In this document: positions 9,198 through 64,000 of the stretch, piece by piece | How the letters are laid out: each line of letters opens with the position of its first letter | Numbering within the stretch: the stretch's first letter is position 1 | NCBI GenBank assembly: GCA_043807585.1 | Contig: JAZDFV010000002.1 | Location: 25,581-89,580, forward strand | Reading direction: 5' to 3' | Length of the DNA stretch: 64,000 nt | Source: Candidatus Jorgensenbacteria bacterium | GTDB lineage: Bacteria; Patescibacteriota; Minisyncoccia; UBA6257; GWB1-50-10 | The notes under the pieces: model-generated | What the model was told of the DNA's origin: nothing | Databases searched by the model: none | Seen by the model: the letters and a program-made list of their open reading frames with translations, nothing else | Made by a program: the position numbers and the translations under genes

Positions 9198-9343
9198 TCT
9201 CCTTTCGCGTTGATATTACCACAAAAATTCGGTACAGTAAATTAAACTATGGCTCGCGTAACCCTTCGACAGGCTCAGGGTTTCCAATCACAGAATCAAG
9301 TTTGTTCGGTATTTATGTGGAGAATCCAAATTTTATACAAAAC

Positions 9344-28874: not shown

Positions 28875-30629
28875 ATGACTTCGCAGGAAATTCGCAAGGC
28901 ATTCCTGAATTTTTTTACAGAGCGTGGGCACACCGTGGTGCCCTCCGCCTCGCTCGTACCCGACGACCCCTCGGTGCTCTTCACGACCGCGGGGATGCAG
29001 CAGTTCAAGCGGTACTACGCCGAACTTGACCCCACAAAGACGGCGCACCCCTCCTTGGGGAAGCCCGTCGGGAAGAACGCCGTCTCGATTCAGAAATGTT
29101 TCCGTACCTCCGACATTGACGAGGTTGGGGACTCCTCGCACCTTACGTTTTTCGAGATGCTCGGAAACTTCTCCTTCGGCGGCTACTTCAAGGAGAAAGC
29201 CATTCACTATGGCCATGAGTTCATCACGGAGGTGATGAAACTTCCCATCGACAAGGTGAGCGTGTTTGAAGGTGACCGTGAGGTTCCGGCCGACGGCGAA
29301 TCCGAGAAAATTTGGCGTTCGCTCGGCGTCACGAACATTGAGAAAGCGGGACGCGAAGATAATTTTTGGGGTCCCACGGGCACCGAAGGCCCCTGCGGCC
29401 CCACGTCCGAGGTCTATGTGAACACTGCCCTTCGACAAGCTCAGGGCAAACCTCCTTTGGAGGTTTGGAATCTCGTTTTCAACGAGTTTTACTCCGACAA
29501 GAGCAAAAAGCTCACAAAGCTCAAAGCTCCGGGTGTTGATACGGGGATGGGGCTCGAGCGCCTCACGATGGTGTCGCAGGGCGTTCACACAATTTTCGAA
29601 ACAGATCTCTTTACGCCACTTATGCGGCTCCTCCCTGCGGGGATGGAGACAAGGACAAAGCGCATTCTCGCCGACCACGTGCGCGGCATCGCCTTCCTCA
29701 TCTCGGACGGTTTCCGCCCGTCGAACAAGGACGCTGGCTACGTGCTCCGCCGTCTCATTCGCCGCGTCGTGACCCACATCCACCTCGCGGGCGATCCAGT
29801 CGACCCCGCGCATCTTTTCGCGGAGGTGAACGAGCATTACGAAAAATTCTATCCGGAACTGAATGCCGAGGCGGTGCTCGAGGTGTTCGGCGAGGAGCGG
29901 GAGCGGTTCACGAAAACGCTCGAGAACGGTCTCCGTGAGCTCAAGAAGATCCCAAAGCTCGACGCGAAGTCGGCATTCACCCTCTACGAGAGCTACGGTC
30001 TCCCCTATGAGGTGGTGAAGGAATTGGGCGGTGCGCAGGCGCGGGACCTGCGGCGTGAGGATTTTGACCGCGAGTTCTCGCGCCATCAGGAAATTTCGCG
30101 CGCGGGCGCGGAGAAGAAGTTCGGGGGTCACGGACTCGTCTTGAACACAGGCGAGCTCAAAGCGGGGAGCGAGGAAGAACTCCAGCGGGTCACGCGTCTC
30201 CACACGGCGACCCACCTCCTCCAGCGCGCGCTCCGCGAGGTGCTGGGCGCGGAAGTGGAGCAGCGCGGGTCCGACATCACGCCCGAGCGCACTCGGTTCG
30301 ACCTTTCGTTTCCCCGAAAGATTGAGAAGGAAGAGATTTGGCGTGTGGAGGAGATAGTGAATGAAAAGATCAAAGAGGACCTCCCTGTGGGGTTCGTTGA
30401 ACTCCCCAAGGAGGAAGCGGTGAAGACCGGCGCGCTCTTTTTCTTCCGCGAGAAGTACCCTGATCGCGTGAAGGTATATTACGTGGGATGCTCGCTCGAT
30501 GGTGCGTGGAGTAAGGAGTTCTGCGGCGGGCCCCACGTTGCGCGCACGGGGGAGATCGGTCACTTCAGGATCATCAAAGAGGAAGCGGTCGGCGCCGGCG
30601 TCCGCCGCATCCGCGCGACAGTGATTTAA
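28875..30629 (+). CDS. alaS: alanine--tRNA ligase, short form (catalytic plus editing domains, no C-Ala domain)
   Basis: Class II AlaRS motifs and an editing site (TATHLL ... CGGPHV) are present. Confidence 0.9.
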   Translation: MTSQEIRKAFLNFFTERGHTVVPSASLVPDDPSVLFTTAGMQQFKRYYAELDPTKTAHPSLGKPVGKNAVSIQKCFRTSDIDEVGDSSHLTFFEMLGNFSFGGYFKEKAIHYGHEFITEVMKLPIDKVSVFEGDREVPADGESEKIWRSLGVTNIEKAGREDNFWGPTGTEGPCGPTSEVYVNTALRQAQGKPPLEVWNLVFNEFYSDKSKKLTKLKAPGVDTGMGLERLTMVSQGVHTIFETDLFTPLMRLLPAGMETRTKRILADHVRGIAFLISDGFRPSNKDAGYVLRRLIRRVVTHIHLAGDPVDPAHLFAEVNEHYEKFYPELNAEAVLEVFGEERERFTKTLENGLRELKKIPKLDAKSAFTLYESYGLPYEVVKELGGAQARDLRREDFDREFSRHQEISRAGAEKKFGGHGLVLNTGELKAGSEEELQRVTRLHTATHLLQRALREVLGAEVEQRGSDITPERTRFDLSFPRKIEKEEIWRVEEIVNEKIKEDLPVGFVELPKEEAVKTGALFFFREKYPDRVKVYYVGCSLDGAWSKEFCGGPHVARTGEIGHFRIIKEEAVGAGVRRIRATVI

Positions 30630-30739
30630 CGGCGAATAGCAAGGAGCAGACAATGAACATTGGAACTAAAGTAAAAGATTGGAAGGGTGGGTACTACACG
30701 ATAGCGTAGTACCCTGCCATCAGAACAAAAACCGTGACC

Positions 30740-30866
30740 GAACCACAAACCAAGGTTTGCCAAAATTGTCCCGATTTTGTATGAGCAAAGCGAATGGACA
30801 AAATCGAGTCCCGATTTGTCCTGCGCGAAGTGCAGATGACAAATCGAGGATTCTCGATACAATCGG
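30740..30866. promoter_or_regulatory. array of three related palindromic sites (ACAAAATCGAG..CTCGATTTTGT-like) upstream of the Cys-rich gene
   Basis: The three sites are ccaaaattgtcccgattttg, ggacaaaatcgagtcccgatttgtcc and acaaatcgaggattctcgatacaat. Confidence 0.45.
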
Positions 30867-31090
30867 AAGATCCCGCGCAGCGGGATAAAGAATTATGAAC
30901 AAAGAGATCATCTACTGTGAGCAGTGCTATCAAAGCGAGGTGACTTAAATAAAACGCTATGACATGTCATAGCGCCATACCATGGTTATAGCACCGAGAG
31001 AATCTAAGAAAAGTTAGGATATGACACAAGAGACCAGAACCTACCAGAACTGTCCCGCTACGCGGGATCTCGCGAAGCGAGACAAACACT

Positions 31091-32890
31091 ATGTCTGAAT
31101 CAGAAACAATAGTTTGTCAGAATTGTCATAGTTCCTTCGTCATTGAATCGGAGGATTTTACGTTCTACGAGAAAATAAAAGTCCCGCCGCCGACGTGGTG
31201 CCCGGAGTGCGACAGTGCAAAGAGAATGACTTGGAGAAACGAGAGATCTTTGTATTGGCGCGATTGCGGTTTGTGCGGTAAGAAAACACTCTCGATGTAT
31301 TCAAAAGAAAATCCTTTTACTGTTTATTGTCATAAATGTTGGATATCGGATAAGTGGGACTCATTAGTATTCGGGAGAGATTATGATTTTCAGAAAGATT
31401 TTTTCACGCAATTTTCAGAACTCCAAAAAAGCGTACCCCGCGCCTCGGTTCTCCAATATGGGACCAGTGTAAATTGCGAATTTACAAACTACACCAGAAA
31501 CACAAAAAATGTCCTCCTAGCCTATTCGGTTTCTACCGGTGAAAATATATATTATTCATTCACTGTAGATTGGTCTAAAGACGCGTTGGATTCTTTAATG
31601 TTGAAGAATTCCGAATTGATATTTGAAGGATTTAATTCGGATCATTGTTATAATTCTCAATTTCTCGTAGATTGCCGCGATTGCACCGAATCATCGTATT
31701 TGTATGATTGTGTGAACTGCCAGAATTGTTTTATGTCGGTGAACCTTAGAAACAAACAGTTCGTTTTTTATGGAAGACAGCTTTCGAAAGAAGAATATAG
31801 CAAAGCAATTTTAGAAATTGATATCGGAAGTTTTGAGACGAGGGGAAGATTAAAAGAAGAATTTCATAATGTTATTTTGCAAACAATTCATAAGTATGGA
31901 GATGTAGTTAAGGTTGTTAACTGCACCGGCAACTATCTTTCGAATTGCAAAAACGTGAAAAATTCATATAGCGTGTATGATTCCGAGAACGTAAGAAACA
32001 CCATTCGCGCCTTGAAAGCGAGAGACATCAGGAGTGTTTTTAGCTGCGGAGAAGGGAGCGAACTTATTTATAGCGGGATTGTCGGTGGCAAAACCAGTTC
32101 TAATATAAAATTTTTTGCAAGTGCGGATGTGCTACGCGAATCGCAATACACCGATTGGTGTTTAAGTTCATCAAATCTCTTCGGCTGCATCGGCCTTCGC
32201 AACAAGCAGTACTGCATCCTTAACAAGCAATACACGAAGGAGGAATATGAAGCCCTTGTACCCCGCATCATCGACCACATGAACACCATGCCCTATGTAG
32301 ATACCAAGGGCAGGATATACAAATATGGCGAGTTCTTCCCCCCGGAATTGTCTCCCTTCGCCTACAACGAAACCATCGCACAGGAGTATTTCCCCCTGAC
32401 CAAGGATAAAGCTATTCAACAGGGCTACCGCTGGAGGGACGCGGATACGAGAGATTACAAAATAACCAAGAGACCGGAGGATCTCCCCGACCACATCAAA
32501 GATGTAGAGGATGCAATATTGAAAGAAACCATCCAATGCATGCACCACCCTTCGGCAGGCTCAGGGCAGGCCGCCTGCAATCACCAATGCACCACCGCCT
32601 TCAAGGTTATCCCAGAAGAACTTGCCTTCTACCGCAGAATGAACCTCCCGCTCCCACGTCTTTGCCCCAACTGCCGGCACTACGAACGCCTAAAGCAGCG
32701 GAATCCCCTGAAGCTCTGGCACCGCACCTGCCAGTGTGCGGGAGGAAAAAGCGAGAACGGTGTCTACGAGAACACCATAACCCACCCACACGGCACCGGC
32801 CACTGCCTAAACGAATTCGAGACCAGTTACGCTCCAGAGAGAAAGGAAATCGTGTACTGCGAGAGTTGTTATAATACTGAAGTGGTATGA
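31091..32890 (+). CDS. Cys-rich protein (599 aa) with homologous N- and C-terminal double zinc-ribbon modules flanking internal Cys/Asn-rich repeats
   Basis: Multiple CxxC pairs are present. The termini are related (F.I..E..FY......P..CP.C ... LW.R.C), and there is an internal repeat (CFMSVNLRNKQFVFYGRQLSKEEYSKA / CIGLRNKQYCILNKQYTKEEYEAL). Confidence 0.7.
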   Translation: MSESETIVCQNCHSSFVIESEDFTFYEKIKVPPPTWCPECDSAKRMTWRNERSLYWRDCGLCGKKTLSMYSKENPFTVYCHKCWISDKWDSLVFGRDYDFQKDFFTQFSELQKSVPRASVLQYGTSVNCEFTNYTRNTKNVLLAYSVSTGENIYYSFTVDWSKDALDSLMLKNSELIFEGFNSDHCYNSQFLVDCRDCTESSYLYDCVNCQNCFMSVNLRNKQFVFYGRQLSKEEYSKAILEIDIGSFETRGRLKEEFHNVILQTIHKYGDVVKVVNCTGNYLSNCKNVKNSYSVYDSENVRNTIRALKARDIRSVFSCGEGSELIYSGIVGGKTSSNIKFFASADVLRESQYTDWCLSSSNLFGCIGLRNKQYCILNKQYTKEEYEALVPRIIDHMNTMPYVDTKGRIYKYGEFFPPELSPFAYNETIAQEYFPLTKDKAIQQGYRWRDADTRDYKITKRPEDLPDHIKDVEDAILKETIQCMHHPSAGSGQAACNHQCTTAFKVIPEELAFYRRMNLPLPRLCPNCRHYERLKQRNPLKLWHRTCQCAGGKSENGVYENTITHPHGTGHCLNEFETSYAPERKEIVYCESCYNTEVV

Positions 32891-33546: not shown

Positions 33547-35454
33547 ATGGCCGAAGAGAACGAGCATAACGTAGCGTATTTCGGGCGGGTGGATTTCAGG
33601 AGCTCCGAGCGCCTTTTTGGCATCCGGCGGCAGGACCGCCGGCAGCACATGTACGTCATCGGGAAGAGCGGTACCGGGAAGAGCGCGATGCTCCACAACC
33701 TCATCGTGCAGGACATCGCGAATGGTGAAGGTCTCTGCGTTGTGGACCCCCACGGCGATCTCGTGGAGAGCATCCTGCCGAAGATCCCGAAAGAGCGCAT
33801 AAACGATGTCATCTATTTCAACCCCGCGGACTCCGACTTCAACATCGGGTTCAACGTGCTGGAGCTTCCGGACCCAAAGTACAAGCACCTTGTGGCCTCC
33901 GGGCTCATGGGGATTTTCACCAAAATTTGGTCCAACGTCTGGTCCGCGCGGATGGAGTACATTCTGAACAACGCCATCCTCGCGCTCTTGGATACGCCCG
34001 GCACGACGCTCCTCGGGGTGAGCCGCATCCTCGTGGACAAGGAGTTCCGCCAGAAGATCCTTGCGAACGTGAAGGACCCCGTGGTGCGCTCGTTCTGGTT
34101 GAACGAGTTCGAGGAGTGGCGTGACCAGTTCAGGAACGAGGCCATCGCGCCGATCCAGAACAAGGTGGGGCAGTTCCTCTCCACCGCAATGGTGCGGAAC
34201 ATCGTGGGGCAGGCGAAGAGCACCATTGACATCTTCAGCATCATGAACGAGGGGAAGATCTTCCTCGTGAACGTTTCCAAGGGGCGCATCGGCGAGGACA
34301 ACTCGGCGCTCTTGGGTGCGATGCTCATCACCAAGATCCAGCTCGCGGCCATGGAACGGGTGCGGGTGTCGGAGGAGGAACGGGTGGATTTCTACCTCTA
34401 CGTGGATGAGTTTCAGAACTTTGCAACCGATTCGTTCGCGGGCATCCTCTCCGAGGCGCGGAAGTACCGCCTGAACCTTATCCTCGCCCACCAGTATGTG
34501 GGCCAGCTCGTCACGATGGGGGCGGGCGCGATCTCGACCAAGGTGCGGGACGCGGTCTTCGGGAACGTCGGCACCATGGTGGTGTTCCGCGTGGGGGCCG
34601 CCGATGCCGAATATTTGGAGACCGAATTTACACCCGAGTTCCTCCCAGAGGACATTGTGAACCTCCCGAACTACTCGGTGTATCTGAAGCTCATGGTGGA
34701 TGGGGTCACGAGCCGCCCCTTTTCCGCGCACACCCTCCCACCATTCAAGGTGCAGGCCTCGGAAACCATCAGCGAAGAAATCATCAACAATTCACGCAAG
34801 CGGTACGCGCGCCCCCGCTACGCGGTGGAGGAGGAAATAGCCATCTGGAGCGGCATGGCGCCGGGAGCAGGCCCGGGGGAGTTCGTGCCGCGCCCTGGCG
34901 TGGGGGGGAAGTATCAGGCAGTCTGCTCTTCCTGCGGTAAGGAGACCACTGTTCCCTTCGAGCCCCAGCAGGGCCGCCCGGTGTACTGCAAAGAATGTTT
35001 GGAGAAAATAAAGGCGGGAGAATTGGAGCCGGTGCGGGTGATGCCGGCTTTTGAGAGGCGGGGAACGGAGCAGACGGCGGACATGTCGGCGCTCGCGGGT
35101 TTGGGGATCGAGTTCAGCGGGAAGGGTTCGGCAGGGGCACCGCGGGAGGGGGGTGGTCCGTCGCGGCGCGAGGAGCGTGGGGGGTTCCACCCGAGGCCGC
35201 AGGACGAGCGCGCACCCTCCCACCGGCCAGCCGGTCCCTCTAGGCCCTCCTTCGAGCCTCGCCCCTCCATTTTGCGTGGTACGAGAACCGAGAGTGCCTT
35301 GACTTCGTCGGAAGAGGAAGAGCATGAACTTCGGTTGAGCGAGCTCACGCCGACAGAGAAAAAGGATGCCCACCCGCCGCAGGGCGGCAGGGAACCGGAT
35401 ATCACCGGTCTCCGCGAGGCGCTCCGGGATGCGCTGGGGAAATTGAAGGAGTAA
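33547..35454 (+). CDS. TraD/VirD4-like type IV coupling-protein-family ATPase with C-terminal C4 zinc ribbon and R/G/P-rich disordered tail
   Basis: It has Walker A (GKSGTGKS), Walker B (YVDEFQNF), a T4CP-like RKYRLNLILAHQ, a zinc ribbon (CSSCGKE...CKEC) and a low-complexity tail. Confidence 0.75.
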   Translation: MAEENEHNVAYFGRVDFRSSERLFGIRRQDRRQHMYVIGKSGTGKSAMLHNLIVQDIANGEGLCVVDPHGDLVESILPKIPKERINDVIYFNPADSDFNIGFNVLELPDPKYKHLVASGLMGIFTKIWSNVWSARMEYILNNAILALLDTPGTTLLGVSRILVDKEFRQKILANVKDPVVRSFWLNEFEEWRDQFRNEAIAPIQNKVGQFLSTAMVRNIVGQAKSTIDIFSIMNEGKIFLVNVSKGRIGEDNSALLGAMLITKIQLAAMERVRVSEEERVDFYLYVDEFQNFATDSFAGILSEARKYRLNLILAHQYVGQLVTMGAGAISTKVRDAVFGNVGTMVVFRVGAADAEYLETEFTPEFLPEDIVNLPNYSVYLKLMVDGVTSRPFSAHTLPPFKVQASETISEEIINNSRKRYARPRYAVEEEIAIWSGMAPGAGPGEFVPRPGVGGKYQAVCSSCGKETTVPFEPQQGRPVYCKECLEKIKAGELEPVRVMPAFERRGTEQTADMSALAGLGIEFSGKGSAGAPREGGGPSRREERGGFHPRPQDERAPSHRPAGPSRPSFEPRPSILRGTRTESALTSSEEEEHELRLSELTPTEKKDAHPPQGGREPDITGLREALRDALGKLKE

Positions 35455-37918: not shown

Positions 37919-39403
37919 ATGTCAAGTACTAAGAAAAGGGTATTCATTGCGATGTCCCCGAAGCAATCCCTTCGGGATGCTACGGGGCAGGCCGGCGGCG
38001 TGAAGCGGCCGAGGGTTTTTGTTGCGATGAGTGGGGGCGTGGATTCCTCCGTCGCGGCATTGCTGTTGAAAAAAGCCGGCTACGATTGCGTGGGCGTTTT
38101 TATGAAATGCTGGAGTGGAAACGGCCCCTCGGCATCGCTCGGGGCAAGTTGCGCGGAGCGGGATGCGGAGGATGCGCGGCGGGTCGCGGAACATATCGGC
38201 ATACCGTTCTACGTCTTTGATTTTGAGGAGGAATACAAAAAGCGGGTGGTGGAATATATGGTGGAGGGCTACCGCGCTGGTATTACGCCCAACCCTGACG
38301 TGATGTGCAACCGGGAGATAAAGTTCGGGCTGTTCTTGAAACGGGCGCTCGCGCTCGGGGCGGATTATGTGGCGACGGGGCACTACGTCCGTCTGCGGCG
38401 GAATGATGAATTTAGAATTTCTAATTTTGAATCAATTTCTAATTCCAGAATTAACAATTCAAACATTCAATCAAAATTCAAAATTGAGAATTCAAAATTT
38501 GGTCTTTTTCAGGCGAAGGACTTGAATAAAGACCAAAGTTATTTTTTATGGACATTGACCCAGAAGCAACTAAAATACTGCCTTTTCCCCATCGGTGATT
38601 ATCTGAAGTCCGAGGTGCGCGAAATTGCACGGAAGGCGGGGCTCCCCACCGCGGAGAAAAAGGACTCGCAGGGCATCTGTTTCCTGGGCGATGTCCCACT
38701 CAAGGACTTTTTGAAGCAGTATTTGCCGGAGCGGGAGGGGCCAGTGGTGCTTGCCCTGAGCGGAGCCGAAGGGACGGTGTATAAGAAAATAGGGGAGCAT
38801 GAGGGGGCGCATTTCTACACTATCGGTCAGCGCCACGGATTTTTGGTGCAAATGGCAAAGGGCTCCGATGGCAGAGCCATCGCGAGTCCACGACAAAGTC
38901 GGGACAAAGGGCAAAGCAAGGGAGAAACTAAGCCGCACTACATAGCGGCGAAGGATGTCGCAACAAATACGCTTATAGTTGCCGAAGGGAGTGATCACCC
39001 GTCGCTCTTTCAAAGAGAGGTCTCATTAACCGACATCAATTTCATCAATCCACATTCATTAGAAATTGGAAATTGTCTCGCTACGCGAGATCCCGCGAAG
39101 CGGGAGAAATTGGAAATTCCCGTGCTCGCACGGGTGCGGTACCGCCAGCCGCTCTTTGAAGCGACGCTGATTTACTCTGATGGGGAGCGGATAAATGCTG
39201 ATGGAAATCCGTATAAATCAGTTTCAAAATCCGCATCAATCCGCATAGTTTTCAAAAACCCTCAAAAATTCGTCGCTCCCGGCCAGTCCGCGGTGTTTTA
39301 TTTACCCGCCCGTAGCGGTGCGAAGGCGGGCTTGCCCGTCCGAAGCTCGGCGAAGGAGGGTCGCGAGGAGCTTGAAATGTTGGGTGGCGGAATGATTTTG
39401 TAA
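37919..39403 (+). CDS. mnmA: tRNA 2-thiouridine synthase MnmA carrying three in-frame repeat-derived insertions
   Basis: A PP-loop (SGGVDSS) is present, and the ORF is about 130 aa longer than typical MnmA. Insertions sit at 38401-38505 (AT word-palindrome), about 38870-38945, and 39073-39106 (palindromic repeat), and a repeat-derived C-terminal tail follows from about 39325. Confidence 0.85.
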   Translation: MSSTKKRVFIAMSPKQSLRDATGQAGGVKRPRVFVAMSGGVDSSVAALLLKKAGYDCVGVFMKCWSGNGPSASLGASCAERDAEDARRVAEHIGIPFYVFDFEEEYKKRVVEYMVEGYRAGITPNPDVMCNREIKFGLFLKRALALGADYVATGHYVRLRRNDEFRISNFESISNSRINNSNIQSKFKIENSKFGLFQAKDLNKDQSYFLWTLTQKQLKYCLFPIGDYLKSEVREIARKAGLPTAEKKDSQGICFLGDVPLKDFLKQYLPEREGPVVLALSGAEGTVYKKIGEHEGAHFYTIGQRHGFLVQMAKGSDGRAIASPRQSRDKGQSKGETKPHYIAAKDVATNTLIVAEGSDHPSLFQREVSLTDINFINPHSLEIGNCLATRDPAKREKLEIPVLARVRYRQPLFEATLIYSDGERINADGNPYKSVSKSASIRIVFKNPQKFVAPGQSAVFYLPARSGAKAGLPVRSSAKEGREELEMLGGGMIL

Positions 39404-57235: not shown

Positions 57236-57604
57236 AAACTCTTCTCCCGAACCAAAAAAGAGGAAAAGAAGCCGGCGGTGACTGCGGCGCCCGCGGCACC
57301 GGCATTGCGCGGCGAGCACGCCCAGCCGCTCGAAGGGTTTTCCCCGGTCCAGCGCCCCTATGTGAGTGAGAAGACGCACGGGCTCGAGCGACACCGCGCG
57401 TACGCGTTCCTGATAAACCCTTCAGCGAACAAGGAGATGATTAAGCGGTATGTGGAGGAGCGTTATAAAGTGAACGTGGAACACGTGAACATCACCAGCA
57501 TTGCCTCAAAGGCAAAGCAGTTCCGGGGGCGCGTCCATCACGTCGGCAAGCGGAAAAAGGCCATCGTGCGGGTCCGCGAGGGACAGCGTATAGAAATTTC
57601 GTAA
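57233..57604 (+). CDS. rplW: 50S ribosomal protein L23 (N-terminally extended)
   Basis: An L23 core follows an Ala/Pro-rich N-terminal stretch of about 30 aa. Confidence 0.9.
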   Translation: MKLFSRTKKEEKKPAVTAAPAAPALRGEHAQPLEGFSPVQRPYVSEKTHGLERHRAYAFLINPSANKEMIKRYVEERYKVNVEHVNITSIASKAKQFRGRVHHVGKRKKAIVRVREGQRIEIS

Positions 57605-57650
57605 TGGCTTTGTCTAAAATTACAAGACAAAATCGCAGGAATTTTAGGTC
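57605..57650 (+). terminator. conserved post-stop hairpin gggctttgtctaaaatt-loop-aattttag (copy after rplW; others lie after rpsS, rplV, rplP and rpsN)
   Basis: The same 45-nt motif follows five r-protein stop codons (57605, 59031, 59821, 61299, 63949). Confidence 0.6.
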
Positions 57651-57687
57651 CTCGACTGAGCTCGGCCGAACGTCCCACAAAACCTTA

Positions 57688-57790
57688 CCCAGCACATAAA
57701 AGTATGAAAACATCAACCAATCTTAAAGTAATTACTTCTCGATTGAACGATTTGTACCAAGAAAGTCGCTTGGTTACTTTTATGTGCTGG
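57688..57790. repeat. CAGCACATAAA-TIR element R1 (about 103 nt, TIR cccagcacataaaagta / tacttttatgtgctggg)
   Basis: There are six copies in the r-protein operon spacers (57688, 59087, 60742, 61355, 62013 and 63592). R1, R2 and R4 are near-identical. Confidence 0.85.
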
Positions 57791-57852
57791 GTGCTCAAAT
57801 TTTCAGCAAAATTTAGCATCGCCTTCGGCTCGCAAATTTTGGTAAATTTGGC

Positions 57853-58674
57853 ATGAAACAGCACCGTCCATACACGCCTTCCCGTCGCCACATGACCGTG
57901 GTGGACTATTCGTCCATTACCGCGAAGGAACCCTTGAAGTCGCTCACGCGCCGCTTCCCCAAGCGGGGCGGGAGGAATTCCCAGGGGCGCATCACCATGC
58001 GCCACCAGGGCGGCGGCAATAAAGCGCTCTACCGCATGGTGGATTTCCGTATGAACAAAGCGGGTGTTCCAGCCAGGGTGGAAGCGATCGAATACGATCC
58101 ATACCGCACCGCTTTCATTGCGCGGCTCCTCTATCGGGACGGCGAGCGGCGCTACGCGCTTGCCTCCCATGGACTCGCGGTAGGCGATGTGGTGACAACG
58201 GGTGAAGAGGCGCCGGCAAAGCCGGGCAACCGAACGTCCCTTCAGCGCATTCCGGTAGGCACTTTTGTGTATAATATAGAGCTCTCGCCTGGCCGCGGCG
58301 GCCAGATCGCCCGTTCCGCCGGCTCAACGGTGCAGGTGCTCGCGAACGAGGACGGCTACACGCATCTTAAAATGCCGTCGGGGGAGGTTCGAAAGGTGCC
58401 ATGGAACGGCTGCGCCTCCATCGGTCAGGTATCGAATCCGGAACATAAATTCGTGACCATAGGGAAAGCGGGCCGCTCGCGGTGGCTCGGGGTGCGCCCG
58501 ACGGTGCGCGCAAAGGCGATGAACCCGCGTGACCACAAGTACGGCGGCGGCGAGGGGAGTACCCAGCGCGGCACCAAGCGTCCCAAGGACAAGTGGGGGA
58601 ATATCACCGGAGGCCGGAGGACCCGCAATAAGAAAAAGTGGTCGAGCGTGCTCATCATGAAGCGAAGATCTTAA
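57853..58674 (+). CDS. rplB: 50S ribosomal protein L2
   Basis: The L2 sequence is present. Confidence 0.95.
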   Translation: MKQHRPYTPSRRHMTVVDYSSITAKEPLKSLTRRFPKRGGRNSQGRITMRHQGGGNKALYRMVDFRMNKAGVPARVEAIEYDPYRTAFIARLLYRDGERRYALASHGLAVGDVVTTGEEAPAKPGNRTSLQRIPVGTFVYNIELSPGRGGQIARSAGSTVQVLANEDGYTHLKMPSGEVRKVPWNGCASIGQVSNPEHKFVTIGKAGRSRWLGVRPTVRAKAMNPRDHKYGGGEGSTQRGTKRPKDKWGNITGGRRTRNKKKWSSVLIMKRRS

Positions 58675-58700
58675 CCCCAACAAGCGATCCCTATAACTCT

Positions 58701-59030
58701 ATGTCCAGAAGCATTCGCAAAGGTCCGTGGGTTGACCCCAAGCTCTTGAAGAAGGTGAGCCGGCTCAAGCTTGGCGATCGCACGGTCATCAAAACGTGGT
58801 CGCGCGATTCTGAGATTGCGCCCGAGATGGTAGGGTTTGTCTTCGACATCCATAACGGCAGGCAGTTCATCGAGGTGACGATTTCGGAAGATATGGTGGG
58901 ACATCGTTTGGGTGAGTTCTCGCTGACCCGGAAGTTCGTGAAGCATGGAGGGAAAATGCAGCGTGACATCGAGAAAAGTGCCGAAGCGACCGCCGCCACC
59001 CCCAAGCCGCCCGCGCCTGCCGGTAAGTAA
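58701..59030 (+). CDS. rpsS: 30S ribosomal protein S19 (C-terminally extended)
   Basis: The S19 sequence is followed by an extended C-terminal tail. Confidence 0.9.
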   Translation: MSRSIRKGPWVDPKLLKKVSRLKLGDRTVIKTWSRDSEIAPEMVGFVFDIHNGRQFIEVTISEDMVGHRLGEFSLTRKFVKHGGKMQRDIEKSAEATAATPKPPAPAGK

Positions 59031-59086
59031 GGGCTTTGTCTAAAATTACAAGACGAAATCGCAGGAATTTTAGCAACAAAACCTTA

Positions 59087-59190
59087 CCCAGCACATAAAA
59101 GTATGAAAACATCAACCAATCTTAAAGTAATTACTTCTCGATTGAACGATTTGTACCAAGAAAGTCGCTTGGTTACTTTTATGTGCCGGG
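59087..59190. repeat. CAGCACATAAA-TIR element R2
   Basis: It is near-identical to R1. Its right flank, gtggacattcggctgagctcagtcgaagccctcg, is shared with R6 and, in inverse orientation, with the R1 left flank. Confidence 0.85.
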
Positions 59191-59262
59191 TGGACATTCG
59201 GCTGAGCTCAGTCGAAGCCCTCGGTTTTATAATCGCTCGTAAAACTCGCGAATAAAAACGGC

Positions 59263-59820
59263 ATGCCCGAAACCACCACCGCAAAACTCAAATATCTTCA
59301 CATCACGCCGCGCAAAACGCGTGCGGTGGCGGACCTCATCCGCGGGCTCTCCGTGAATGAGGCGGAGGCGCAACTTTCCCTCACCGCACGGCGCGCGGGA
59401 GTACCCCTCCTGAAGCTCCTACGTTCGGCGGTAGCGAACGCAAAGCAAGTGTTGAAGAAAGAGCCAGCCGAACTCTTCGTAAAGGAGATACGGGTGGATT
59501 TGGGTCCCCGGTTCAAACGGTGGAACCCCCGAGCCCGCGGAGCGGTGAACCTTGTGGAGAAAAAGATGAGCCATGTGACAGTGGTCCTCGGCGTCATGGA
59601 GCATCCGCGCCCGGCGCGCTTCGTGTTCCCCGAAAAACCGAAAAAGGAGAAAAAGGAGAAAAAGGAGAAACGCGGGCACAAGCACGAACATGAAGCCAAA
59701 GAGAAACCCGCTGGTGAGGCGCCCCGCGGGGAGGAGAAAAAGAAAGCGAAGGAGGAACCGTGGCGCGGCGGCGGGCGCAAAGGGTTTCTCGGGCGCTTGT
59801 TCCGGCGCAAGGCCGTCTAG
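59263..59820 (+). CDS. rplV: 50S ribosomal protein L22 with K/E-rich C-terminal extension
   Basis: An L22 core is followed by an extension containing KKEKKEKKEK. Confidence 0.9.
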   Translation: MPETTTAKLKYLHITPRKTRAVADLIRGLSVNEAEAQLSLTARRAGVPLLKLLRSAVANAKQVLKKEPAELFVKEIRVDLGPRFKRWNPRARGAVNLVEKKMSHVTVVLGVMEHPRPARFVFPEKPKKEKKEKKEKRGHKHEHEAKEKPAGEAPRGEEKKKAKEEPWRGGGRKGFLGRLFRRKAV

Positions 59821-59871
59821 GTTTGTCTGAAATTTGAAGATGAAATCGCACAAATTTCAGCAACAAACCGT

Positions 59872-59980
59872 GACCCCGTTAGATAGCGGTAATAATATGA
59901 AATTTCAATACAAAAATGGAGTATTAGGGATAACAATCGTCGAACCACTCCGAGCGGGTCCGTCCGCATCTAACGGGGTG
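59872..59980. repeat. CCGTTAG-TIR element copy G (between rplV and rpsC)
   Basis: gaccccgttagatagcggtaa ... ccgcatctaacggggtg. Confidence 0.8.
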
Positions 59981-60039
59981 CTCAAATTTATGGCGGAATA
60001 TGACTTCGCCTTCGGCTCGTAAATTTCGATAAATTTGGC

Positions 60040-60720
60040 ATGGCACAAAAAATAAATCCAACAACTTTCCGATTAGGCATTACCATCCCGTGGCGGAGCC
60101 GCTGGTTCTTCAAGCGGAGCCTCCGGTTTTTCCTTGAGGAGGATTACCTTATCCGCGAACTGATCCGCGAGAAGATTCTCGAGGCCGGTATCGCGGGGAT
60201 CGAGATTGAGCGGACCGCCGACGCCATCCGCGTGAGCATCCGCGCGAGCCGCCCCGGCCTCATCATCGGGCGCGGCGGCAAGGGCATTGACGAAATTCGC
60301 AAACTCCTGGAAAAAGAGATCCGCGCGCTCCGACAAAAAAACCGTATGACGCGCCCCTTCGCGCTCCACTTGAACGTGGAGGAGCTGAAGCGCACCGAGA
60401 TATCCGCCCCGGTGGTAGCCCAGCAGATCGCTTTCGATCTTGAGAAACGGCTCCCATACCGCCGCGTGATGAAGCGGCATCTCGAGCTCATGATGCAGAA
60501 CCGCGAGGTGAAGGGGGCAAAGATTAAGTTGAGCGGACGGCTGAATGGAGCCGAGATTTCGAGGACTGACTGGCTTGCCAAAGGCAAAATGCCTCTCCAA
60601 ACCCTCCGCGCGAACGTGGATTACGGCGAGGCGACCGCGTTCAACTCCTACGGGACCGTGGGTGTAAAGACGTGGATCTATAAGGGAGACATATTCTCAG
60701 AAAAACCCCACGAGCGGTAG
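60040..60720 (+). CDS. rpsC: 30S ribosomal protein S3
   Basis: The S3 sequence is present. Confidence 0.95.
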   Translation: MAQKINPTTFRLGITIPWRSRWFFKRSLRFFLEEDYLIRELIREKILEAGIAGIEIERTADAIRVSIRASRPGLIIGRGGKGIDEIRKLLEKEIRALRQKNRMTRPFALHLNVEELKRTEISAPVVAQQIAFDLEKRLPYRRVMKRHLELMMQNREVKGAKIKLSGRLNGAEISRTDWLAKGKMPLQTLRANVDYGEATAFNSYGTVGVKTWIYKGDIFSEKPHER

Positions 60721-60741
60721 TGAGCGTCGGTTTTTCGAGAA

Positions 60742-60845
60742 CCCAGCACATAAAAGTATGAAAATATCAACTGATTTTAAATTAATTATTTCTGTGTCAA
60801 ATGGCTTGTACCAAGAAGGTCGCTTGGTTACTTTTACGTGCTGGG
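60742..60845. repeat. CAGCACATAAA-TIR element R3
   Basis: It is a family copy with a diverged interior. Confidence 0.8.
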
Positions 60846-60887
60846 TGCGCAATTTTATGATTTCGCTGCCGCTCAAATAAAATTGGC

Positions 60888-61298
60888 ATGCTCCAACCCA
60901 AGAAACAAAGATTTCGCAAGCAGCAGAAGGGGCGCTCCCGGAGCCGCCTCGTGGAGACCCGCGGCACGACGCTCGCATTCGGCCACTTTGGTTTGCAGGC
61001 CCTTGAGGCCGCGTGGGTGACGGCCCAACAGATCGAGGCGGCGCGGAAGGCCATCAGCCACGGCATGGAACGCGAAGGGAAAATGTGGATTCGCGTGTTC
61101 CCCGATAAACCGGTAACCAAGCTGCCGCCCGAGGTGACGCTGGGGGGAGGCAAGGGCGAGGTGGACCATTACGTATTTCCCGTGAAGCCGGGTCGCATCC
61201 TCTTTGAGGTTGATGGGGTGCCGGAGAGTGTCGCATTTCCCGCGCTCCGCAACGCCGGTCATAAGCTGCCGGTGAAGACGAAGATTGTAACAAAGTAA
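60888..61298 (+). CDS. rplP: 50S ribosomal protein L16
   Basis: The L16 sequence is present. Confidence 0.95.
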   Translation: MLQPKKQRFRKQQKGRSRSRLVETRGTTLAFGHFGLQALEAAWVTAQQIEAARKAISHGMEREGKMWIRVFPDKPVTKLPPEVTLGGGKGEVDHYVFPVKPGRILFEVDGVPESVAFPALRNAGHKLPVKTKIVTK

Positions 61299-61354
61299 GG
61301 GCTTGGTATGGATTTTCAAGCCGCAGGCGCAGAAAATACATGAACCAAACCTTA

Positions 61355-61458
61355 CCCAGCACATAAAAGTATGAAAACATCAACCAATCTTAAAGCAATT
61401 ACTTCTCGATTGAACGATTTGTACCAAGGAGGTCGCTTGGTTACTTCTATGTGCTGGG
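61355..61458. repeat. CAGCACATAAA-TIR element R4
   Basis: It is near-identical to R1 and R2. Confidence 0.85.
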
Positions 61459-61519
61459 TGCTCGGTTTTATAGCTAAATTTCCGTCGCGTGCTCGCTTGG
61501 AAATTTAGATAAAAACAGC

Positions 61520-61735
61520 ATGAAAAAGAAAGAACTTCACACCTATCGTGAGAAGCCCATGCCGGAAATCGAGAAGGAGATCCGGGAAGCTCGGGCGCGC
61601 CTTGAAGCGCTCAAGTTTGACTTGGTGAGGGGCAAAGTGAAGAATATACGCGAAGTGCGGGCGGTGAAGAAGACCATCGCGCAGCTCCTCACGCTTCGGG
61701 AGGCCAGGGTGCGCGAGGGAACGCACGTTTCATAA
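61520..61735 (+). CDS. rpmC: 50S ribosomal protein L29
   Basis: The L29 sequence is present. Confidence 0.9.
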   Translation: MKKKELHTYREKPMPEIEKEIREARARLEALKFDLVRGKVKNIREVRAVKKTIAQLLTLREARVREGTHVS

Positions 61736-61739
61736 AACC

Positions 61740-61991
61740 ATGCGAAAGCTTAAAGGCACCATCGTGTCCGATAAAATGACCCGCACCCGGGTGGTGGAGA
61801 TTGCGCGAACGAAGAAGCACCCCCGCTATGAGCGCTACGTTACAGTGACGAAGCGCGTGAAGGCGGACGATCCAAAGAACGAATACAAAACGGGAGAGAT
61901 GGTGGTGATCGAGGAAACCCGGCCGCTCTCCAAGGAAAAGCGGTGGAGAATCGTTGGCTTGGTCCAAAAATCGGAGCCGAAGGCGAAATGA
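61740..61991 (+). CDS. rpsQ: 30S ribosomal protein S17
   Basis: The S17 sequence is present. Confidence 0.9.
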   Translation: MRKLKGTIVSDKMTRTRVVEIARTKKHPRYERYVTVTKRVKADDPKNEYKTGEMVVIEETRPLSKEKRWRIVGLVQKSEPKAK

Positions 61992-62012
61992 TTTTTGGCT
62001 ACCAAACAACAA

Positions 62013-62116
62013 CCCTGCACATAAATTTATGAACACGGTTTTCAACCAAAAAATGAATAAGATATCGGTCAATCGCTCTGGTTATCGAAAGCGTACGGTT
62101 AAATTTATGTGCGGGG
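62013..62116. repeat. CAGCACATAAA-TIR element R5 (diverged: ccctgcacataaatttatg ... aaatttatgtgcgggg)
   Basis: The TIRs are related and the interior differs. Confidence 0.7.
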
Positions 62117-62186
62117 TGCTCATTGTGGTAGCTGAATATTCTTCGCTACGCAGTGAGCTTCGCTTGAATATTCAGACCACAATGGC

Positions 62187-62552
62187 ATGATCCAAGAACG
62201 TTCCATCATTAAAGTGGCCGACAACAGCGGAGCGAAAACCGTCCGTTGTTTTCGCATCCCTGGGGGAACCCGGAGGCGGTACGCGCGGATTGGCGACATT
62301 CTCGTGGCCTCGGTGCAGGTCGCCGAACCCCGGAAACAGGTAAAGAAGAAGGACATCATCCGCGCCCTCGTGGTGCGTACGCGAAACCCCCTCAGGCGTC
62401 CCGACGGCTCCGTGGTGCGGTTCGATGAAAATGCCGTGGTGCTTGTGGATAAGAAAGAACCTCGCGGGACCCGCGTATTCGGTCCAATCCCGCGGGAAAT
62501 AAAAGAAAAGGGATATGACGCCATCGCGTCGTTGGCGGAGGAACTCGTGTAA
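62187..62552 (+). CDS. rplN: 50S ribosomal protein L14
   Basis: The L14 sequence is present. Confidence 0.95.
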   Translation: MIQERSIIKVADNSGAKTVRCFRIPGGTRRRYARIGDILVASVQVAEPRKQVKKKDIIRALVVRTRNPLRRPDGSVVRFDENAVVLVDKKEPRGTRVFGPIPREIKEKGYDAIASLAEELV

Positions 62553-62559
62553 CGCGATG

Positions 62560-62700
62560 CAAAACTATAAATTCATGCGAATCTACAAATATGATACGAA
62601 TATATCCGCATAAATCCGTTTCAATCCGCATAAATCCGTGTTTAGTAAATCAGCGTAAATCAGCGTCCAATAAATCAGCATCAATCCGCGTGTTTAGTAA
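62560..62700. repeat. direct-repeat word array upstream of rplX (ccgcataaatccg x2, aaatcagcgt x2, gtgtttagtaaa x2)
   Basis: Direct repeats of several words are present rather than an inverted arrangement. Confidence 0.6.
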
Positions 62701-62706
62701 AACAAT

Positions 62707-63012
62707 ATGAAAATAAAAAAAGGAGATACCGTAAAAGTGCAAAAAGGAAAAGACCGCGGGAAGAGCGGGAAGGTGGTGCATGTTAACCCGGTCACCGGTC
62801 GTGTCATGGTGGAGGGGTTGAATCTCGTGAAGAAGCACGTGCGCCCGCGCCGGCAGGGCGAGAAAGGCGAGGTAGTGCAGGTGCCGCGTTCCGTCCCCGT
62901 AGCGAACGTGGCGCTCGTCTGCCCGCACTGCAGCGCCGCGACCCGCGTCGGTTTTCGCGCCGAGGAGACCCGAAAGGTGCGGTACTGCAAAAAGTGCCGC
63001 GCGGCGATCTGA
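62707..63012 (+). CDS. rplX: 50S ribosomal protein L24 with C-terminal C4 zinc-ribbon-like extension
   Basis: An L24 KOW region is followed by CPHCS...CKKC. Confidence 0.9.
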   Translation: MKIKKGDTVKVQKGKDRGKSGKVVHVNPVTGRVMVEGLNLVKKHVRPRRQGEKGEVVQVPRSVPVANVALVCPHCSAATRVGFRAEETRKVRYCKKCRAAI

Positions 63013-63014
63013 AT

Positions 63015-63548
63015 ATGGCACACCGAACGGCAGGCAAACCAATAGAGAAAGTGGTGGTGAATGTGGGGGTTGGGAAGCTCCGTAGCCAACCGCAGTTTGA
63101 CGAGAAAGTGCTCCCCGAGGTGGCGCAGGAACTCGCGCTCCTCACGGGCCAAAAGCCGGCGCCACGGCAGGCCGCAAAAGCGGTGGCGAGTTTCAAGACC
63201 CGTGAGGGTGATATCGTAGGGTTGCAGGTGACGCTCCGCGGGAAGCGCGCACAGGCGTTCCTCGAAAAACTGGTGCGCCTCATACTCCCGCGCGTGAAGG
63301 ATTTCCGCGGCGTGGATATGAAGAATGTGGACGAAGGGGGCAATCTGAACCTTGGGTTCCGCGAGCAATACGTGTTCCCGGAGATCAACATGGAGAAATC
63401 ACGCACTCACTTTGGCTTGCAGGTGACGGTGGTCCCCGTGGTGCGGGATCGCGTCCGCGCGCTCGAACTCTATCGGTCGCTAGGGGTTCCGCTGAAGGGC
63501 TTGGTTGAAAAATACAAGCCGCAGGCGCCGCGCCCGACTTCGCATTGA
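63015..63548 (+). CDS. rplE: 50S ribosomal protein L5
   Basis: The L5 sequence is present, and its start overlaps the rplX stop. Confidence 0.9.
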   Translation: MAHRTAGKPIEKVVVNVGVGKLRSQPQFDEKVLPEVAQELALLTGQKPAPRQAAKAVASFKTREGDIVGLQVTLRGKRAQAFLEKLVRLILPRVKDFRGVDMKNVDEGGNLNLGFREQYVFPEINMEKSRTHFGLQVTVVPVVRDRVRALELYRSLGVPLKGLVEKYKPQAPRPTSH

Positions 63549-63591
63549 CGAAGTCAAGGCGGGCGGGTAGGATTTTTCAACACCAAACCTT

Positions 63592-63676
63592 CACCGAGCA
63601 CATAAAGCATTATGTTATGAATATGAAGAACAAACACCACGAGGTTGCGCAACCAAGTTCCTTTATGTGCTCGGTG
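63592..63676. repeat. CAGCACATAAA-TIR element R6 (diverged)
   Basis: caccgagcacataaagcat ... ctttatgtgctcggtg is followed by the shared flank gacattcggctgagctcagtcgaagccctcg. Confidence 0.7.
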
Positions 63677-63762
63677 GACATTCGGCTGAGCTCAGTCGAA
63701 GCCCTCGATTCCGTAGATAAATTTTCATCGTCCGCTAACTCGAAAATTTATACATAATCGGC

Positions 63763-63948
63763 ATGGCCAAAACATCCGTCATTGCACGATCCAAAAAGCA
63801 GCCGAAGTTTTCCACCCGCGTGGTTCGGCGGTGCTTCCGCTGCGGGCGGAAGCGCGGCTATATGCGCGATTTCAATCTCTGTCGCATTTGCTTCCGCGAG
63901 TTCGCGAGCCGCGGTGAAATTCCCGGGGTGAAAAAAGCGTCATGGTAA
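63763..63948 (+). CDS. rpsN: 30S ribosomal protein S14 (type Z, zinc-binding)
   Basis: It is a 61-aa ORF with the type-Z cysteine pattern CFRCGRKRG...CRICFRE. Confidence 0.9.
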
Positions 63949-64000
63949 GGGCTTTGTTCGAAATTGCGAGCCACAGGCGAAGAAATTTCGATGACAAAAC

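Follow-up and report, generated by a model that had tools for sequence, protein, structure and literature searches.

The Pfam domains zf_Tbcl (PF13451) and zf_Tbcl_2 (PF23477; CxxC-x17-CxxC in NCBIfam) are small and occur alone or as C-terminal appendages, and the CxxC-x17-CxxC domain binds zinc in small proteins of Methanosarcina mazei, as measured by inductively coupled plasma mass spectrometry (PMC12704099). Type IV coupling proteins (T4CPs) of the VirD4 type number 5,713 in 2,918 genomes of the candidate phyla radiation (CPR), with 148 of them near virB4, and their exaptation has been suggested (preprint 10.1101/2025.01.22.634366). The repetitive extragenic palindromic (REP) sequences and bacterial interspersed mosaic elements (BIMEs) of proteobacteria and the Rickettsia palindromic elements (RPEs) are short dispersed hairpins with conserved 5′ flanks and intergenic clusters. 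We compared these systems with a locus in a 64,000-nucleotide stretch of contig JAZDFV010000002.1 of a Candidatus Jorgensenbacteria bacterium (assembly GCA_043807585.1, positions 25,581 to 89,580), called the window below, in which a gene at 31091..32890 on the forward strand encodes a cysteine-rich protein of 599 amino acids (aa) and is preceded by 460 bp rich in hairpins. The terminal modules of the protein have the cysteine spacing of zf_Tbcl and zf_Tbcl_2. Unlike these domains, it brackets a body of about 400 residues, a solenoid and a linker, with two pairs of them, and no family covers this body. The best overall explanation, which we regard as about evenly balanced between right and wrong, is that the gene belongs to a zinc-solenoid family, that its product would be an adaptor linked to an ATPase, and that the upstream region is debris.

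The gene is intact. A sequence-only reading of this DNA had proposed the 599-aa open reading frame (ORF), and it is indeed there, with ATG 31091 as the sole possible in-frame start; direct reading of the sequence upstream gave zero alternatives. The same reading put the number of cysteines at about 40, and the actual count is 31 (5.2%). The ratio of nonsynonymous to synonymous substitution rates (dN/dS) against L003, the nearest relative with a known sequence, to which the gene is 76% identical in nucleotides, is 0.07, and 0.04 to 0.07 in each segment, showing strong purifying selection. Hence, the gene is not a pseudogene, a possibility the earlier reading had left open, and more than 100 of its relatives are full length. 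The protein has no transmembrane or other hydrophobic segment, and we take the ORF to be a functional gene whose product is soluble and cytoplasmic. The gene is a compositional mosaic (31091-32170 versus 32171-32890), the G+C content at third codon positions (GC3) stepping at about codon 360 from 0.28 to 0.52 over codons 1 to 360 to 0.55 to 0.75 over codons 361 to 599; in neighboring genes it is 0.6 to 0.95. Because the closest homologue, which resides in a different genome (L003), has the same step, the gene composition suggests an ancestral recombinant with a breakpoint where the highly conserved block begins. Searched by tblastn for another family copy, the rest of the window returned a mini-ORF remnant alone; the window thus holds one intact copy and remnants. 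Exact-sequence look-ups of the window protein and of its homologue P0005 gave no record.

Both ends of the protein follow the same plan, a treble clef and then a CxxC-x17-CxxC ribbon. We aligned the query with 114 full-length homologues (alignment A1) and compared slices of this alignment by hhalign; residues 12 to 87 and 500 to 597 match with a probability of 98.9% and an E-value of 1e−17, which bears out the homology of the N- and C-terminal modules noticed earlier. N-terminal module 1 (aa 1 to 55; 31091..31255) is a treble clef formed by C9, C12, C37, and C40, all invariant in the family alignment, with an Arg-rich helix; it has the two CxxC knuckles of zf_Tbcl, the second of which opens a helix (residues 38 to 46 in the AlphaFold2 model). 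In N-terminal module 2 (aa 56 to 100; 31256..31390), the spacing read from the sequence is that of zf_Tbcl_2, C59-x2-C62-x17-C80-x2-C83. The modules had been described as pairs of plain CxxC ribbons, which holds for the first half of each terminal module alone; in the C-terminal double module (aa 481 to 599; 32531..32887), further Cys and His ligands are present. Its putative ligands are C483/H485/C496/C500 with C525/C528, and C547/C549/H565/H567/C572 with C590/C593; the ribbon reads C572-x17-C590-x2-C593, and C547/C549/H565/H567 take the place of the first knuckle. C483, C500, C525, C528, C547, C572, and C590 are invariant, and the C-terminal treble clef (aa 481 to 545) is strongly basic (charge +6.5). 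The two homologous terminal modules contain four or five predicted zinc sites.

Between these modules lie two β-solenoid repeats (approximately aa 120 to 245, 31448..31825, and aa 270 to 392, 31899..32266), of which the first is Cys/Asn/Ser-rich, has a low GC3, and ends in NLRNKQF...KEEY, and the second ends in GLRNKQYCILNKQYTKEEY. Residues 132 to 240 and 280 to 390, which include NLRNKQFVFYGRQLSKEEY and GLRNKQYCILNKQYTKEEY, match with an hhalign probability of 99.9% and an E-value of 1.6e−33. The internal duplication recognized from the letters is therefore real and far larger than claimed, the LRNKQ...KEEY unit being merely its end. DSSP analysis of the AlphaFold2 model shows short periodic strands in both repeats, the pattern of a narrow β-solenoid, and its Cys/Asn/Ser-rich coils appear to span about 12 to 13 residues. 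The model, built with the family alignment, is confident and compact (predicted local distance difference test [pLDDT] score, 87.3; predicted template modeling [pTM] score, 0.84); a second model, of residues 376 to 599 alone, has a pLDDT of 79.5. The N-terminal two-thirds of the protein is more variable than the conserved C-terminal half. The most conserved segment is an acidic α/β linker (aa 376 to 480; 32216..32530) with a mean charge of −5.7, a consensus frequency of 0.78, and the invariant positions G413-E-F-F-P417 and N426 (in SPFAYNET). We considered a CxxCxxC motif in repeat 1 (C198/C207/C210/C213, spaced C-x8-CxxCxxC and at least 90% conserved) as an Fe-S site and rejected it. Because repeat 2, its homologue, has Ser and Leu where repeat 1 has C210 and C213, these cysteines fit packing in the solenoid core and not a role as ligands.

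The sequence-only reading did not recognize the family, and neither did our searches: Pfam, NCBIfam, PHROGs, PADLOC, PDB sequences, and Foldseek against PDB and BFVD gave no significant match, and no characterized family, such as a radical-SAM maturase partner or a known repeat protein, was found. Searched with the protein, Pfam, NCBIfam, PHROGs, and PADLOC yielded nothing past weak zinc-finger matches; the family profile had no match below an E-value of 1.8 among all PDB sequences; and Foldseek found none at an E-value of ≤1e−3, either with the full model in PDB and BFVD or with the model of residues 376 to 599 in PDB, the linker having no fold match in the latter search. The best hits of the full model in PDB were left-handed β-helix enzymes, which are not significant (probability, ≤0.28 and template modeling score, ≤0.11 throughout; best E-value, 2.3e−3, at a probability of 0.12 and template modeling scores of 0.07 to 0.1), and in BFVD there were local matches to phage “zinc-ribbon domain” proteins alone. 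The left-handed β-helix of LpxD, GlmU, and γ-carbonic anhydrase is the sole Foldseek neighbor of the central region and resembles it in its periodic strands. Compared with the hexapeptide-repeat β-helix, however, the query has no Hexapep match in Pfam, no significant superposition, and shorter-looking coils, and unlike these enzymes it lacks the acyltransferase or carbonic-anhydrase residues.

The query itself matches zf_Tbcl at aa 5 to 45 with 19.3 bits (E-value, 1.1e−3), which is below the gathering cut-off of 24, and does not match zf_Tbcl_2 at an E-value of ≤1. Among 59 relatives, zf_Tbcl matches 16 at an E-value of ≤0.01 (best, 4.9e−6) and zf_Tbcl_2 matches 9 (best, 1.1e−6), and no other Pfam family was found. 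A relationship of the query to zf_Tbcl is likely because of these 16 matching relatives. No radical-SAM/SPASM protein or ribosomally synthesized and posttranslationally modified peptide was matched in Pfam or NCBIfam, and no radical-SAM cluster is among the 25 commonest neighbors at 84 family loci. We found no description in the literature on the family, on PF13451, or on REP elements of the CPR. The building blocks, treble-clef zinc fingers and a β-solenoid, are known; the architecture, its scale in Patescibacteria, and the link to orphan ATPases described below are undescribed, as far as our searches show.

If “novel” is taken to mean rare, as the protein had been called on first reading, the term does not apply, since the family has thousands of members. 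A word-indexed search recovered at least 7,975 homologues, and an exhaustive profile search recovered 5,236 clusters at 50% identity with an E-value of ≤1e−3, 2,225 of them with an E-value of ≤1e−30. The best 120 homologues are all full length (540 to 650 aa) with 50 to 80% identity, and the most informative name among them is “CxxC-x17-CxxC domain-containing,” the others being “hypothetical.” At least 576 loci in the GTDB species representatives (one genome per species) encode a relative. Patescibacteria or generic labels appear in the titles of 79 of the 80 loci kept, including Jorgensen-, Giovannoni-, Nomura-, Lipton-, Sungii-, Staskawicz-, and Niyogibacteria, Paceibacterota, and Minisyncoccia; the sole outlier is a “Burkholderiales” metagenome-assembled genome. 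Hence, the family is essentially confined to Paceibacteria-type Patescibacteria.

Family genes often stand in arrays. When the ORFs of 86 loci were scanned with the family profile, 47 loci had 2 to 10 copies, nearly always on the same strand and with short spacers. One copy was present at 39 loci, two at 17, three at 14, four at 8, and five at 5, and single loci had six, eight, and ten copies; the ten copies occupy the entire 17.8-kb locus L015. The median identity is 44% to the best paralogue of the same array, compared with 58% to the best protein of a different genome, and 97% of 126 proteins have a nearer relative outside their own array. Because the paralogues are less alike than their cross-genome relatives, the arrays are not the recent, diversifying expansions that we had also considered; by this comparison of identities, they are sets of ancient, individually conserved subfamilies. 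A 40-aa ORF that follows the L001 array was examined as a possible mini-copy and is unrelated.

The commonest neighbor of the family by far is a P-loop ATPase resembling VirD4 and TrwB, as found by clustering 850 flanking ORFs from the 84 family loci, which were the starting point for all counts of this linkage. BLAST with the ATPase of the window detected 35 such genes in 28 of the 84 loci; 15 of the 35 are on the same strand as a family gene and no more than about 110 bp from it, and several lie within arrays. There are two subtypes, of about 490 aa and about 650 to 750 aa, and most members have no N-terminal membrane anchor. For a rough background, 44 contigs picked for an unrelated DNA motif (288 kb) contain one such ATPase, and this one adjoins a family gene. 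In the window, the ATPase (33547..35454, forward strand) starts 657 bp downstream of the 599-aa gene and belongs to the longer subtype; Pfam identifies TrwB_AAD_bind (7.5e−12), TraG-D_C, and a C-terminal zf_Tbcl_2 zinc finger (3.4e−16). This ATPase has no N-terminal membrane segment, and its zf_Tbcl_2 domain is followed by a low-complexity tail of about 150 residues rich in Pro, Gly, Arg, and Glu. The family thus shows a genomic link to VirD4/TrwB-like ATPases that are orphans and for the most part soluble. Such a link is also what would be expected of substrates and adaptors of coupling proteins, and like the partners of VirD4, TrwB, and TraD, the family adjoins P-loop ATPases of this type. 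Unlike in those systems, the ATPases here are mostly soluble orphans, and neither a relaxase, a type IV secretion system (T4SS) channel gene, nor a known adaptor domain accompanies them. Other recurrent neighbors are dnaK/dnaJ/grpE, rpoD, and a ribosomal protein/rpoA cluster. The gene alaS is upstream just in the window and at L001/L002, and a functional link specific to alaS was rejected.

The 460 bp upstream of the gene had been read as a palindrome-rich control region. Hairpins are indeed abundant (RNA fold z-score, −5.8; 0 of 100 shuffles folds as well), whereas a role in control does not fit repeats that are dispersed and interleaved with remnants of family genes. The gggtactac/gtagtaccc hairpin described earlier is located at 30682-30721. 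It is followed by a 5′ fragment of a family gene (30734..30784) that starts with GTG, reads VTEPQTKVCQNCPDFV*, and copies the first codons of the gene itself (VTEPQTKVCQNC versus MSESETIVCQNC); the underlying direct repeat of 46 nt includes the 5′ leader and is 74% identical, and in blastn, 30734-30784 matches family genes of L004, L060, and L069 at their 5′ ends. The fragment is truncated just past its CxxC codons by hairpin 1 (30770-30808), and the same CxxC-PDFV* layout occurs in L118, L121, and L126. Hairpin 1, a copy of a dispersed hairpin with the core TTGTATGAGCnnAGCGAATnnACAA, and the adjacent hairpin at 30810-30849 make up the segment 30770..30849. An array of three ACAAAATCGAG/CTCGATTTTGT palindromes had been noted here; the units exist, as arms of these two hairpins and of a degenerate third. 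A GATCCCGC...GCGGGAT hairpin comes after them.

Farther downstream, a mini-ORF of 17 codons (30895..30948; MNKEIIYCEQCYQSEVT*) is a collapsed family copy in which a gene start is fused to the family C terminus; it matches positions 574 to 588 of the family profile (15.2 bits), and by blastn its DNA matches more than 30 family genes at their 3′ ends. A comparable in-frame fusion of the N and C termini is found at L033:377 (METRNCQNCKKDFVIAPERMEIVYCEACYNVEII*). This ORF of 34 codons (L033:377-480) consists of the first and last residues of the family and keeps two CxxC knuckles, and its product could be a mini zinc ribbon. A perfect palindrome is present at 30953-30976. The 34-nt palindromic repeat reported at 31051-31084 proved to be a 30-nt double hairpin (TCCCGC-TAC-GCGGGA and TCTCGC-GAA-GCGAGA) at 31053..31082, 8 nt before the start codon, which, together with 30863-30885, makes up an inverted repeat of 23 nt. 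The 12-mer GACAAAATCGAG is not overrepresented across the window (9 matches versus 7.3 expected), and Rfam has no match in the upstream region or at related hairpin loci. We conclude that the upstream 460 bp, no dedicated operator region, consists of debris from recombination and repeats, namely, the remains of a neighboring family copy (the 5′ fragment and the collapsed mini-ORF) broken up by REP-like hairpins. The homology between the terminal modules and between the repeat copies would provide the substrate for such collapses.

The hairpins themselves are widespread. An exact-pattern scan of metagenome contigs found the core of hairpin 1 in 44 contigs, of which about 35 share the extended hairpin; in four of these it adjoins a family gene, and in all four it comes after a gene fragment ending in ...CxxC-PDFV*. 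Across 24 distinct copies, 94% of the stem is paired with 5 covarying pairs, a result reached by 0 of 500 shuffles. The upstream hairpin is thus REP/BIME-like in being multicopy, dispersed, and maintained by compensatory changes. These repeats also share with REPs their intergenic clusters and a conserved 5′ flank, (G/C)AAAAyTGTC; in the window, the hairpin units are each preceded by (G/C)A(A/G)AAyTGTC. In sequence they show no similarity to known REPs, and it is unusual that they accompany duplicated 5′ fragments of genes. The recurrent association with the family plausibly arises because the TGYCARAAYTGT (CQNC) codons resemble the flank of the hairpin. At three loci (L104:1227-1360, L119:3560-3719, and L129:1960-2090), the hairpin repeat separates a 5′ tRNA gene fragment from an intact tRNA-Gly(CCC) gene downstream, the same layout of gene fragment, hairpin, and intact gene as at the Cys-rich gene. 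In L087, L089/L106, L117, L123/L130, L122, and L128, the hairpin is the first module of an element of about 300 to 400 nt that begins with TTTGCCGCCAAAGAAAAACTTGTCCCGATTTTG, continues with variable hairpins split by GGGAAAAyTGTC, terminates with GGTTCGGACTAATTCAAGAATACTGC, and has no Rfam match; parts of separate copies of it lie on one contig in L122 and L128. This element could be a structured RNA of an unknown kind or resemble a miniature inverted-repeat transposable element.

What might the protein do? We tentatively suggest that it acts as a zinc-stabilized adaptor or scaffold, an idea we hold as possible and short of probable. The conserved C-terminal half, with its acidic linker and basic treble clef, would dock onto a conserved partner, which may be the VirD4-like motor, the nucleic acid moved by it, or both, and the variable N-terminal solenoid would supply the specificity of each paralogue. 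We infer such an adaptor because the protein is a multizinc solenoid with an acidic and then basic conserved half, its paralogues are ancient, and the family is linked to ATPases that themselves bear a zinc finger of the same type. On a bolder version, to which we give somewhat less credence, the family and the orphan soluble ATPases would form an undescribed machine present throughout the Paceibacteria, in which up to ten or more ancient, specialized adaptor paralogues supply a hexameric motor with different substrates (DNA, RNA, or proteins). Several observations weigh against these proposals. The ATPase link is neighborhood evidence and holds for about one-third of the loci; in the window, a tsaC/Sua5 gene intervenes between the 599-aa gene and the ATPase; and the neighborhoods with dnaK/dnaJ, rpoD, and ribosomal genes may reflect conserved synteny. 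No structural homologue backs any function, and the conserved Arg and Lys residues of the treble clefs are the only pointer to nucleic-acid binding.

Other functions were weighed against the adaptor. The family members could be cargo, effectors translocated by the VirD4-like ATPases through a patescibacterial T4SS, with the paralogues as the effector repertoire. Effector genes commonly occur in paralogous arrays, Patescibacteria have T4SSs and are frequently epibionts, and the family adjoins T4CP-like genes. We nevertheless consider this unlikely, as the paralogues are ancient and conserved (58% identity to orthologues; dN/dS, 0.07), unlike typical fast-evolving effectors, and the C terminus is a folded zinc ribbon with an acidic end instead of a disordered basic tail. 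Most of the adjacent ATPases are without the N-terminal membrane anchor that true coupling proteins have, and no virB4 was seen in the loci, though no search was aimed at it; most T4CPs of the CPR are likewise far from virB4 (preprint 10.1101/2025.01.22.634366). Slightly less probable still is an enzyme or redox protein, in which the zinc modules would be structural and residues 376 to 480 or C198/C207/C210/C213 would be catalytic or bind an Fe-S cluster. The strong conservation of the CxxCxxC motif and the nearly invariant GEFFP/SPFAYNET block speak for it, yet the Ser and Leu in repeat 2 do not, few invariant polar residues exist besides the zinc ligands, no enzyme or Fe-S family was matched in Pfam, NCBIfam, or PDB, and neither a radical-SAM nor another maturase is a recurrent neighbor. 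An antiphage or interbacterial conflict system made of the arrays and the ATPases would agree with the mosaic composition of the 599-aa gene, and FtsK/HerA/VirD4-type ATPases and multicopy variable partners are frequent in defense islands. It is quite improbable given that PADLOC has no match, that nuclease and toxin domains are absent, that selection is strongly purifying, and that the family is near-universal, with conserved orthologous subfamilies, beside housekeeping genes.

A regulatory reading of the upstream region is the least probable of these alternatives, and we regard it as very unlikely. The sequence-only reading inferred tight, possibly repressor-controlled expression, in which the palindromes would be operators; alternatively, a 16-codon upstream ORF (uORF) that terminates within hairpin 1 and has two Cys codons, together with alternative hairpins, would form a translation-coupled attenuator. 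The region is strongly structured, the hairpin shows covariation, the segments 30770-80, 30798-808, 30810-20, and 30838-49 could pair alternatively as read from the sequence, and the uORF ending in CxxC-PDFV-stop recurs with the hairpin in L118, L121, and L126. However, such a gene-fragment leader precedes just 3 to 5 or so of the family genes examined, which number more than 170, and the core motif is upstream at 1 of 86 family loci; the family thus does not conserve the leader as a regulatory feature, and the idea of repressor control was not borne out. About 30 contigs have the hairpin without a nearby family gene, in three contigs it comes after a tRNA fragment, no U-tract follows any of the hairpins, no regulator gene is adjacent, and the uORF is accounted for as a duplicated gene start.

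Short repeats have also entered coding sequences, and in this the locus resembles the RPEs of Rickettsia, since inserts of 21 or 30 nt are sometimes in frame, here in mnmA, fusA, and the 599-aa gene. The last contains a 21-nt insertion (32546..32566) that encodes HPSAGSG and carries the dispersed motif CCCTTCGRCARGCTCAGGG. The sequence-only reading correctly placed this motif, shared with alaS and fusA, in frame in the gene (32548-32566). The motif, of 19 to 21 nt, has four copies in the window versus 0 expected, at 9262-9280, 29428-29446 (alaS), 32548-32566, and 51018-51036 (fusA), all of them within ORFs. The seven residues are absent from the closest homologues (P0002, P0004, P0005, and P0006) and sit in a low-pLDDT loop of the C-terminal zinc knuckle; other family members have similar ...GSPS..SGQ... 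inserts at the same site. In fusA, the motif encodes an additional loop (GPSTSSGQA) ahead of a conserved stretch. The alaS copy, which may be an insertion, is read in a different frame as LRQAQGK and lies in a region that varies too strongly for such a call in the single homologue compared. Motif-like sequences are seen beside hairpin repeats in L121 and L126, and “IRQAQG” is seen in a gene remnant at L021:4147. The double hairpin has a second copy at 39076-39105 on the reverse strand with 2 mismatches, versus 0 expected by chance, which lies in frame within an mnmA-like ORF (37919..39403; …CLATRDPAKREK…). This ORF is about 130 aa longer than its three Pfam MnmA domains explain, and the insert is located between the PRC-barrel and C-terminal domains, beside further short repeats of the AAATCCGCATCAATCCGCATA family.

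The window contains other repeats as well. Several families are found at 57600-64000, 11894-12193/13197-13496, and 42651-42756/43096-43201. Among them are a 168-nt unit, with four copies between 57.6 and 61.5 kb; hairpin-like units of 34 to 47 nt (AAGGGCTTTGT...ACAAG...); and a duplication of 300 nt with 92% identity, 1.3 kb apart.

In summary, Patescibacteria with genomes of about 1 Mb devote, in some cases, at least 18 kb (ten consecutive genes) to a single family that databases name no further than “hypothetical protein.” The upstream region and the in-frame inserts of 21 and 30 nt illustrate that these genomes contain active families of short hairpin repeats by which genes are reshaped, a point of importance in the annotation of CPR genomes. 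The link between the family and the ATPases, which a recent survey left unexplained, offers a concrete way to test two parts of the CPR “dark matter” together. If the two do form a machine, this would explain why thousands of “exapted” CPR coupling proteins are kept away from T4SSs.

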